A stretch of 64,000 nucleotides of DNA from Candidatus Moanibacter sp. (GTDB lineage: Bacteria > Verrucomicrobiota > Verrucomicrobiia > Opitutales > UBA2987), in NCBI GenBank assembly GCA_965215885.1, contig CBDCEW010000102.1, positions 96,001 through 160,000 on the forward strand, in the 5' to 3' direction. The position numbers were made by a program, and so were the translations under genes. The stretch's first letter is position 1. The number at the start of each line of letters is the position of its first letter. Of the stretch, positions 19,514 to 21,254 are shown one piece after another. The notes under the pieces are model-generated. The model had not been told where the DNA came from. It searched no databases and worked only from the letters and a program-made list of their open reading frames with translations.

Positions 19514-19564
19514 CAGCCTGTCGGACTCTTTTCATCAGGCTGCTAGGAATCTTATAGTAGCTCC

Positions 19565-19856
19565 AGGTTATTCATCCAAGGGGCCGAGTGGAGCCGCAGG
19601 AAAAACTCGGCGAGGCCCCTTTGTGAATAACTTGGCCGATCAGTGGTTGGCGATGGGTCAAAGAGTTTGTTTGGCTAAGGGTGAAAATATTCAAAGGCAG
19701 CCGTCCACTACGAACTTAGGAATCAGTCCGAAGAGGACTTCCGACAGAATTTCGAGTGGACGGCCTGCCTGGATGACCGAAAACGAACACTCAGTTTACA
19801 TCCTCATAACAGGATCCAACTATAAGGACTTCGCCTGGACATCCAGTGCCTTTGAA
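19565..19856 (+). ncRNA. Predicted IS110 bridge RNA
   Basis: Target loop guides TAGGAATC (19717-19724) and TCCGACAG (19740-19747); donor loop guides CTCAGTTTAC (19790-19799) and ACTATAAG (19819-19826); closing stems GCCGTCCACT/AGTGGACGGC, CTGGATG/CATCCAG, TCAAAGGC/GCCTTTGA; ends approximate. Confidence 0.88.
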
Positions 19857-19889
19857 AAAAGCAAAAAGACAAACTAAAGGAACAAAGGG

Positions 19890-21200
19890 ATGCAGAAAAG
19901 GGAAAAAACAAATCGATATAGTGTGGTGATAGGAATTGATTGGGCGGATCAGAAAAACGATCTGTGGATCATAGAGAGCGAAACGGGAAAAGGGACCCAT
20001 CGACAGGTGGCGCAGGATGCGGTCAGCTTGCACGAATTTGCCGTAGAGATGAGAGAAAAGTATGCCAGCGTGGGCAAGCGCATGGCCATGGTGGTGGACC
20101 AGAAGCGAGGAGGGTTGATCAACTTTCTGATGGGCTTGGAGTTTGTCGATATCTATCCAGTGCATGCGGCCAGGGCGAAGGATTATCGCCGGGCGCTGTA
20201 TCCATCAGGGGCCAAGAGCGACCCGGTCGATGCGCAAATACACGCGGAGTTTTTCCTCAAACATCCCGAGCTTTTTACCAAATGTTTCATACCTGACACG
20301 GCCCAAACACGGGAGCTGAACCTGTTGTGCGAGGACCGCCGTGGATTCGTCGATCAGGCTACCAGCCTCGAACAGCAGTTGGGCAGTTGTCTGAAGCAAT
20401 ATAACCCTTTGGTCTTGAAATTGTTCGATGATCTAGGCAGTGGCCTGTGCCTGCACTTTATATTGCGTTGGCCGACCCTCAAGAAGCTGCACAGAGCATC
20501 GGAGGGTGTCTTGCGAAAGTTCTTCTATAAGCACAACTGTCGCAGTGACGCCAAAATCCAGGAGCGTCTCGAATTGATCGGTAACGCACGAGCCTTGACC
20601 GAAGATGCAGCCATCATTGAAGCATCCAGCAGAAAAGCACAGACGTTGGCCGGACAGCTTTTGACCCTGTGCCCGCAGATCAAAGCGTATGAGAAGCGTA
20701 TCAGGGAGCTATTCAGAAGCCATCCCGATGCAGCCGTGTTCAGTGGCATTCCCGGAGCCGGCGAGGTCATGAGTCCCCGGTTGCTGTGCGCGTTCGGGAC
20801 CGATCGTTCGCACTTCGAAACGGCCCAGAACATGACCCAGTGGAATGGATCCGCTCCGGTCACGATCAACAGCGGGCAGGACAAAAGAACCGGACAACCG
20901 AAACGAATGGTCAACTGGCGGTGGGCGGCTCCTACCTTCGTGCGGCAAAGTTTCGTTGAATTTGCCGAACATTCGATCCGAAACTGTGCCTGGGCAAAGG
21001 CCTTTTACCAGATCAAAAAAGAACAGGGCAAACCCCGCCAAACCATTCTTCGTGCCCTCGCTCTCAAGTGGACCCGCATTCTGTTTCGCTGTTGGCAAAA
21101 TAGCGAACGCTACGATGAGCAAAAGTATCTCCAATCGCTCCAACGCACCGGTTCACCGGTGTGGAAAAGACTTCAGCAAGCAAATGCCAACGCCTTGTAA
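19890..21200 (+). CDS. IS110-family recombinase (RuvC-like DEDD domain plus Tnp20 domain)
   Basis: IGIDWAD, KSDPVDA, IPGAG, APVTINSG (catalytic Ser), RALALKWTRILF. Confidence 0.96.
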   Translation: MQKREKTNRYSVVIGIDWADQKNDLWIIESETGKGTHRQVAQDAVSLHEFAVEMREKYASVGKRMAMVVDQKRGGLINFLMGLEFVDIYPVHAARAKDYRRALYPSGAKSDPVDAQIHAEFFLKHPELFTKCFIPDTAQTRELNLLCEDRRGFVDQATSLEQQLGSCLKQYNPLVLKLFDDLGSGLCLHFILRWPTLKKLHRASEGVLRKFFYKHNCRSDAKIQERLELIGNARALTEDAAIIEASSRKAQTLAGQLLTLCPQIKAYEKRIRELFRSHPDAAVFSGIPGAGEVMSPRLLCAFGTDRSHFETAQNMTQWNGSAPVTINSGQDKRTGQPKRMVNWRWAAPTFVRQSFVEFAEHSIRNCAWAKAFYQIKKEQGKPRQTILRALALKWTRILFRCWQNSERYDEQKYLQSLQRTGSPVWKRLQQANANAL

Positions 21201-21231
21201 ACACAACATGAGAAAAAACTCAAAAAATCCC

Positions 21232-21237
21232 TTGACG
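21232..21237 (+). promoter_or_regulatory. -35 half of the IS110 circle-junction promoter
   Basis: TTGACG lies 17 bp from TATAGT (19553-19558) only after the element ends are joined. Confidence 0.85.
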
Positions 21238-21254
21238 GACTACCTCAGTTTTCT

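Follow-up and report, generated by a model that had tools for sequence, protein, structure and literature searches.

An insertion sequence (IS) of the IS110 group occupies positions 19553-21252 of a 64,000-nucleotide stretch of the Candidatus Moanibacter sp. genome (contig CBDCEW010000102.1, positions 96,001 to 160,000; hereafter the window, to which plain coordinates refer). The element is 1700 bp long, is flanked on each side by a CT core dinucleotide and is, with high confidence, an active IS that carries a bridge RNA in its left end (LE) and is one of ten copies in the genome. This reading draws on the anatomy of the element, its copy number, its insertion sites, a conserved RNA structure in the LE and the covariation of guides with insertion sites among relatives. 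Bridge-RNA systems as a class were published in 2024 (Durrant 2024, PMC11208160; Hiraizumi 2024, PMC11208158). By its sequence, the element is a new, distant member of this known class and is related to IS621 of Escherichia coli at the profile level only.

Element boundaries, copies and target repeat

The left junction of the element reads TAGGAAT-CT/TATAGT (19544-19558) and the right junction CTCAGTTTT-CT/GTCGGT (21244-21260), with the slash placed after the core. Terminal inverted repeats are absent (the ends are TATAGT... and ...CAGTTTT), and there is no target duplication beyond the shared CT. The genome assembly (6.36 Mb, 105 contigs) holds ten copies, each exactly 1700 bp; six are identical, while the other four differ by one or two single-nucleotide polymorphisms (SNPs), none of which lies within 19717-19826. 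The recombinase frame is open in all ten copies, and CT stands on both flanks of each. A first-pass annotation, made from the letters of the window alone, had called the element intact, a description borne out by the ten near-identical copies with open frames; the strings, hairpins and element ends that it named are all found where it had placed them. A 210-bp fragment on another contig (C99:54428-54638, L012) is 97% identical to element positions 1190-1399 and is probably the remnant of an eleventh copy.

Nine of the ten copies are inserted in xAGGAAT-CT/CT-GTCGG(A/T), where the slash stands for the element. The left flank is TAGGAAT in six copies, CAGGAAT in three and another sequence in one, and the right flank is GTCGGA in seven, the window copy itself having GTCGGT. 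The target 13-mer AGGAATCTGTCGG has 256 unoccupied occurrences in the genome. Open frames of at least 200 codons contain 21.5% of the 13-mer sites, compared to 76.2% of the genome, and of 49 pairs of neighbouring sites no more than 200 bp apart, 48 have an inverted arrangement. Judged from sequence and placement, the target is a mostly intergenic repeat that resembles repetitive extragenic palindromes (REP) and bacterial interspersed mosaic elements (BIME). Five 13-mer sites reside in the window, at 5259, 21331, 49371 and 60229 on the minus strand and at 60146 on the plus strand.

Predicted bridge RNA and its guides

The 337-nt LE folds with an energy of -120.6 kcal/mol (z = -5.41), and none of 100 shuffles is equally stable. 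In the fold, two arms are present, and both combine an outer stem with an internal loop and a small hairpin, in agreement with the pair of internal loops that the first-pass annotation described. Loop 1 exposes TAGGAATC (19717-19724) on its 5' strand and TCCGACAG (19740-19747) on its 3' strand, with the inner hairpin AGTCC/GGACT (19725-19729/19735-19739) between them; loop 2 exposes CTCAGTTTAC (19790-19799) and ACTATAAG (19819-19826) around the hairpin ATCCT/AGGAT (19800-19804/19811-19815). These strands include the predicted left and right target guides (LTG and RTG) and left and right donor guides (LDG and RDG), which correspond to the left and right halves of the target (LT and RT) and of the donor (LD and RD), the donor being the right end (RE) joined to the LE. 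The LTG and LDG have the sense of the top strand, the RTG and RDG are its complement, and the core is included in each; IS621 guides are reported with the same strand sense and the core included (PMC11208160). The IS621-type layout of target and donor loops that had been proposed for this LE thus follows the published strand logic. The proposed match of loop 1 to the flanks TAGGAAT-CT-GTCGGT holds on the left side, while on the right the RTG matches its own flank GTCGGT at 7/8 positions and GTCGGA, the flank of seven copies, at 8/8. The proposed match of loop 2 to the joined element ends is recovered with 8 nt for each guide in the expected sense, the RDG matching at 8/8.

The longest exact matches of the LE (19573-19889) to the four junction halves are 8, 7, 8 and 8 nt in the expected sense and 4, 4, 6 and 4 nt in the opposite sense. 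The summed match length of 31 compares to 21.3 +/- 1.7 (maximum 29) in 2000 shuffles, none of which is as high. No shuffle of the 2000 has all four matches reaching 8, a cut-off that the observed 8, 7, 8 and 8 likewise do not attain. The two A residues that follow the RTG (19748-9) can pair with the TT of donor positions 6-7; thus, CCGACAGAA is complementary at 9/9 positions to the RE-RT junction TTCTGTCGG that would form after strand exchange. By analogy to IS621, this AA may serve as a 'handshake guide' (PMC11208158). The G that follows the RDG would form at most a wobble pair with target position 7.

A long hairpin precedes both guide arms, and a similar hairpin is present in the nearest relatives with DNA, L032, L033 and L108. 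A lone 72-bp segment of this genome (C6:7714-7785, L013) is 78% identical to the part of the element that includes the 5' half of this hairpin.

Conservation of the RNA structure

The structure was compared across an alignment (A2) of 70 left ends, comprising left-end segments of 69 loci and the window. RNAalifold on A2 returns 7 pairs, which represent the outer stem of arm 1 alone. A 36-pair structure was instead taken as the majority of the single-sequence folds of the same left ends. This structure has 84.7% of cells paired in the 70 left ends, a share that is 69.3% for shuffles and 33-45% with a slid partner. Changes on both sides occur in 32/36 pairs, and cells with both-side changes number 342 versus 116 in shuffles, with 0/500 shuffles as high. 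On none of five structure measures did any of the 500 shuffles equal the observed value. The 36-pair structure is somewhat favoured by its derivation from the same sequences, and the compensatory counts are the stronger part of this evidence. The stems are kept paired through compensatory changes and, therefore, selection on a folded RNA is argued.

A covariance model of the two arms (R1, 159 positions) has 90 matches in 95 sources. In this genome, R1 finds exactly the ten copies, and in the window it has a sole match, at 19694-19851 (100.2 bits, E = 5e-22). The first-pass annotation had proposed such a model as a check, and its outcome is a structure conserved with compensatory changes in the 70 left ends. 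Conserved arm 1 is composed of a stem, ACGA and 3 nt, a 9-nt LTG, a hairpin, an RTG ending in AG and 3 nt, UCG and the closing stem. Conserved arm 2 is composed of a stem, AACGAAyACUCAG and 4 variable nt, a hairpin, ACUAUAAG, GnUUUCG and the closing stem.

Guides and insertion sites of relatives

Guides were compared with insertion sites in relatives by placing the element boundaries from donor-side strings: the RDG of each element, reverse-complemented, gives the left boundary, the motif TCRG-N4-core gives the right boundary, and the flanks so defined are then compared with the target loop. This comparison uses 41 of 86 rows, which hold 32 distinct target loops. Averaged over the 32 loops, 10.1 of the 14 non-core positions agree with the element's own flanks, compared to 4.0 +/- 2.1 for 992 non-self pairs, and at least 11 matches are reached by 16/32 loops versus 1.2% of the non-self pairs. 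Low scorers are kept in these figures, some of which are one-base register shifts or a wrong choice between two right-end candidates. The boundaries are confirmed independently by the multi-copy families L082/84/86, L098/99 and L032/33/51/108.

On the donor side, the three bases after TCAG track the LDG, with TTT in this element and ACC, AGG, GTG or AAG in others; among the relatives, positions 1-3 after TCAG match the LDG in 26/32, 20/27 and 18/27 rows, and position 4 in 7/27. At this fourth base, which is LD position 7, a guide A faces a DNA T in 14/27 rows. Core position 1 of the LDG matches in 11/27 rows and core position 2 in 0/27. Conservation of TATAG extends to the left ends of relatives; for the left-end variants CTTACAG in L096 and CTTATTG in L022, the RDG of the element has changed to match. 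Guides of homologs thus follow their own insertion sites and ends, as had been put forward for checking by the first-pass annotation, and this natural covariation suggests that the guides are reprogrammable.

Cores other than CT are implied by the guides of L074, L026, L048, L044, L045, L038 and L043 and of the cyanobacterial L035-L037, L073, L079 and L091. The core letters of the RTG and RDG change together in L074 and L026 (CC), L048 (TG), L045 (CA), L038 (AT) and L043 (AA); in L044 the two disagree (CA vs CG). In the cyanobacterial group, the cores of the left and right junctions appear different (GT vs AT).

An extra module with a target loop only lies upstream of the full bridge RNA, at a distance of ~150 nt, in three relatives (L041:1144-1254, L042:1159-1250 and L085:1170-1270), which are assigned by title to Terriglobia, Bryobacteraceae and Acidobacteriaceae, respectively. 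The LTG of the extra module is GCAGAGCCA or GCGGAGCCA versus GCGTTGCCC, and the RTG is the same or one base off. The flanks of L042 and L049 are a better fit to the second LTG. In this small sample, two target loops may give dual specificity, so that two variants of a repeat are recognized.

Recombinase

The recombinase includes the two domains of the family, PF01548 (DEDD_Tnp_IS110; residues 14-173, 1.2e-17) and PF02371 (Transposase_20; residues 283-374, 2.3e-9). A single-sequence search of the PDB finds IS621 (1.7e-4) and ISCro4 (8.8e-5), both weak and through the C-terminal domain alone. By contrast, a profile of 33 family members matches IS621 (8wt6) at 5.3e-15 with the catalytic motifs aligned (giDWA with GIDTA, ksDpvDa with KTDTVDA and ersGk with YESGS). 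The catalytic residues of IS621 are given as D11, E60, D102, D105 and S241, as well as G242 (PMC11208158). Catalytic positions were assigned through the profile alignment to 8wt6, and of these D17, D111, D114, S328 and G329 are invariant in 33/33 family members. The assignment to IS110 recombinases made in the first-pass annotation is thus upheld by both Pfam domains and by the catalytic D/E-D-D and Ser positions.

Protein searches return 1588 relatives at E <= 1e-3, the closest of which are 79, 79, 70 and 59% identical; the nearest named relatives carry a verrucomicrobial label. Within the phylum, 401 genomes were scanned and 14 have matches, the genome of this element being included in both counts. 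In the genome contigs, no relatives are found by a single-protein query, while an alignment-based query keeps 80 loci of 35-47% identity from many phyla. The nearest relatives for which DNA was examined are ~38-47% identical to the recombinase.

Proposed mechanism and transcript hints

By analogy to IS621, the element is proposed to form a circle, to be transcribed from a promoter at the circle junction and to recombine by RNA-guided chemistry. The RE would be joined to the LE through the CT core in the circle, and this RE-LE junction would build a sigma-70 promoter, TTGACG-17-TATAGT, that drives the LE with its bridge RNA and then the recombinase gene. The loop of arm 1 would pair with both strands of the REP-like TAGGAAT-CT-GTCGGA and the loop of arm 2 with the joined ends of the element, CTCAGTTTT-CT-TATAGT; in each case, the left guides (LTG and LDG) would pair with the bottom strand and the right guides (RTG and RDG) with the top strand. 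A tetramer of the DEDD/Ser recombinase would then exchange strands at the CT core, resulting in insertion without target duplication.

The promoter elements can be read directly from the sequence: TTGACG (21232-7) is 17 nt before TATAGT (19553-8) across the circle junction and is near the sigma-70 consensus. A near-consensus promoter is found in 0/10 integrated copies, and the flank of the window copy provides a weak TTTTCA-18-TATAGT. The natural -35 box of IS621 is likewise described in its RE-LE (PMC11208160). If the junction promoter is used, the RNA would extend from ~19565 to ~19845, or ~280 nt; the bridge RNA of IS621 is 177 nt (104 + 73 bases; PMC11208160).

The element is contained in 20 public runs from 9 studies. 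Four runs were compared through their Logan contigs, two being metatranscriptomes of one study and two, from another study, guessed to be RNA. The contigs span 19606-19839 (X17), 19545-19845 (X18), 19543-19838 (X19) and 19688-19837 (X20). In all four runs, from two studies, the contigs stop at 19837-19845, which is the 3' end of the donor arm, with no loose end there. These stops are a weak hint at most of RNA production. In X19 and X20 no contig covers the recombinase gene, a result that is uninformative. Contig depths cannot rank the LE against the gene. Records in the run contigs that join 19527 to 21316 were considered as an empty site and rejected, as they represent other copies of the repeat.

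Alternative explanations

Several points weigh against an active, RNA-guided element. At the locus itself, the LDG disagrees with the donor at two places, LD position 7 and core position 2, and the LTG with the target at core position 2; one of the ten copies resides outside the target motif. A search of Rfam 15 with E up to 10 finds only chance-level matches (flavivirus elements and others) and no bridge-RNA family. Among the relatives, a brute-force search for four coordinated guide matches in 44 loci scores 30-33/36 for real and 27-31 for null sequences, with no separation; this test is non-discriminating and, therefore, was replaced by the boundaries from donor-side strings. The latter comparison drops 45 of the 86 rows, 24 with non-CT core guides, 9 without a left boundary, 2 whose left flank runs beyond the contig and 10 without the right-end motif. 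On the side of expression and movement, Logan contigs are blind to starts, ends, strand and level, two of the runs are RNA only by guess and no DNA run stands alongside; an RE-to-LE joint is not seen in the contigs of the four runs. Lastly, the second catalytic position (residue 70) is Asp rather than Glu in the clade of this element, with D in 5 (this recombinase and its four closest relatives) and E in 28 of the 33 family members.

One alternative is that the matches between loops and sites work at the DNA level, the LE holding copies of the target and ends that serve as protein-binding sites or subterminal repeats, and that the fold is only an mRNA leader. Sequence alone cannot separate RNA-DNA pairing from DNA repeats. 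Yet the stems that flank the guides keep their pairing with 32/36 pairs changed on both sides, the four guides are divided between the strands in exactly the manner published for the IS621 bridge RNA, and the recombinase is homologous to IS621. A purely DNA-level role of the loops is thus considered very unlikely.

A second alternative is a recently inactivated relic, which would have kept its anatomy while losing function in the RNA or in the recombinase, where Asp replaces the second catalytic Glu. The distribution of residue 70 in the family favours this view. By contrast, the ten copies differ by 0-2 SNPs with every frame open, and the D70 change is regarded as old and retained because it is shared by the five closest proteins across 59-100% identity. 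The Glu-to-Asp change is also predicted to be conservative, as the carboxylate is kept. There is accordingly only a slim chance that the element is such a relic, and an active element remains the preferred reading.

That the element is of the IS1111 type, with a guide (seekRNA) in the RE and an unrelated structure in the LE, can be dismissed almost completely: IS1111 elements are of the same family and do use the right end, but the two groups are told apart by which end is longer and carries the RNA (PMC11208160), and here the non-coding LE of 337 bp is longer than the RE of 52 bp, as in the IS110 group, and is where the conserved structure and every one of the four guide matches are found, so that the anatomy already contradicts an IS1111 assignment.

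A copy in a donor-like site

The copy outside the target motif (C84:54654-56353; L009:1501-3200, minus strand) is inserted in CTCAGTTTA-CT/CT-TATGGG, where the slash again stands for the element. This site matches the LDG at 11/11 positions, among them an A that is missing from the real donor, and the RDG at 6/8. The flanks of the copy are long open frames with no Pfam match. Elsewhere in the genome, the left-donor half is present at 9 sites and the right-donor half at 76, all of them unoccupied. Nesting of this copy in an older copy of the element was considered and rejected, as the flanks have no similarity to the element. A 'partial copy' at C84:1-489 was likewise rejected as an eleventh insertion, as it is an inverted duplicate of the odd-copy locus; the duplicate extends over C84:1-2500 versus C84:52643-55142 (99.76% identity) and probably represents a strain variant or a fold-back in the assembly.

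IS621 is described as inserting on rare occasions at sites that resemble its donor (PMC11208160), and a 2026 preprint counts, among 168 sites, 4 with LD and RD, 21 with LD only and 50 with RD only (10.64898/2026.08.31.748434). From the match of its site to the donor guides, the C84 copy has an even chance of being a fixed natural case of insertion directed by the donor loop. To our knowledge, donor-loop-directed insertion has so far been limited to low-frequency laboratory off-targets of IS621. If the C84 copy is such a case, each bridge element would have a second, cryptic specificity able to reach inside long open frames.

Table 1. Features of the element and its target, with window positions.
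Feature	Position	Strand	Basis
Left target half (LT) TAGGAAT, host DNA	19544..19550	+	sequence; flanks of 10 copies
Core dinucleotide CT, left copy	19551..19552	+	both sides in 10/10 copies
Non-coding left end (LE), 337 bp, encodes predicted bridge RNA	19553..19889	+	fold z = -5.41
TATAGT, right donor half (RD) and -10 hexamer completed in the putative circle	19553..19558	+	junction sequence
Long hairpin 5' of both guide arms	19564..19634	+	minimum free energy and centroid structures
Predicted bridge-RNA core: target arm ~19695-19769, donor arm 19770-19845	19694..19851	+	covariance model R1
Left target guide (LTG) UAGGAAUCA: 7 nt equal to LT, then C (core position 1), then A	19717..19725	+	
Right target guide (RTG) UCCGACAG: reverse complement of CT+GTCGGA, then AA in handshake position	19740..19749	+	
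Left donor guide (LDG) CUCAGUUUACA	19790..19800	+	matches RE CTCAGTTTT-CT save LD position 7 and core position 2
Right donor guide (RDG) ACUAUAAG: reverse complement of CT+TATAGT, 8/8	19819..19826	+	
Recombinase gene, 436 aa	19890..21200	+	Pfam domains; profile match to IS621
Right end (RE), 52 bp; -35 hexamer TTGACG 21232-21237; left donor half (LD) CTCAGTTTT 21244-21252	21201..21252	+	
Core CT (right copy) and right target half GTCGGT	21253..21260	+	
Free target 13-mer AGGAATCTGTCGG, inverted, 77 bp past the element	21331..21343	-	
Full target site TAGGAAT-CT-GTCGGA: TAGGAATCTGTCGGA			

Comparison with known systems

Bridge RNAs are predicted in 85.7% of IS110-group elements (PMC11208160). 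As described for IS621, features common to both elements include: (i) a two-domain DEDD/Ser recombinase and a CT core, (ii) an LE-encoded RNA, predicted in this element, whose target loop precedes the donor loop, (iii) the strand sense of the guides, with the core included, and (iv) a -35 box in the RE-LE and a repeated extragenic target motif. IS621 tolerates a mismatch at LD position 7 (PMC11208160), and the LDG of this element mismatches there too. The two differ in the length of the recombinase (436 aa versus 326 in IS621), in the RTG (8 nt versus 4 nt in IS621; PMC11208160), in the second catalytic residue (Asp versus Glu) and in the non-coding sequence that precedes the guide arms, which here is ~140 nt with a long hairpin.

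Among named insertion sequences, the nearest are probably ISCfr13/ISCps4/ISCps5/ISEsa2 (row 373, Supplementary Table 1, PMC11208160), which have in common with this family the motifs IGIDWADQ, PSGAKSDP.DA, SSGK and HWRWA(C/A), based on domain strings compared by eye. Relatives on enterobacterial plasmids are ~38% identical and account for 594 records, annotated just as 'IS110 family transposase'. ISPpu9/ISPpu10 of Pseudomonas putida are described as IS110 elements inserted in repeated extragenic sequences, like this one, but in a different host and with a different target motif. IS1111/seekRNA elements share the protein family and the RNA-guided logic (PMC11208160); their guide RNA resides in a long right end, whereas that of this element is in the LE. 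The exact target-loop string of this element is not in six supplements of PMC11208160, one of them incomplete, and a literature search joining IS110, the truncated term Verrucomicrobi and 'bridge RNA' found no paper.

Significance

The known mechanism is unchanged by this element, as both the mechanism and its generality across the IS110 group are already in print. As a distant and apparently active bridge recombinase, its full specificity is readable from the sequence, which makes it a candidate tool. The 8-nt RTG is naturally long, and lengthening of the RTG improved specificity in IS621 (PMC11208160). By-products of the comparison are a subfamily covariance model, natural non-CT cores, relatives with a second target loop and the apparent natural insertion at a donor-like site. 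In the host, the element has 256 natural target sites in the genome, and the REP-targeting habit of IS110 elements is thus seen in another lineage.

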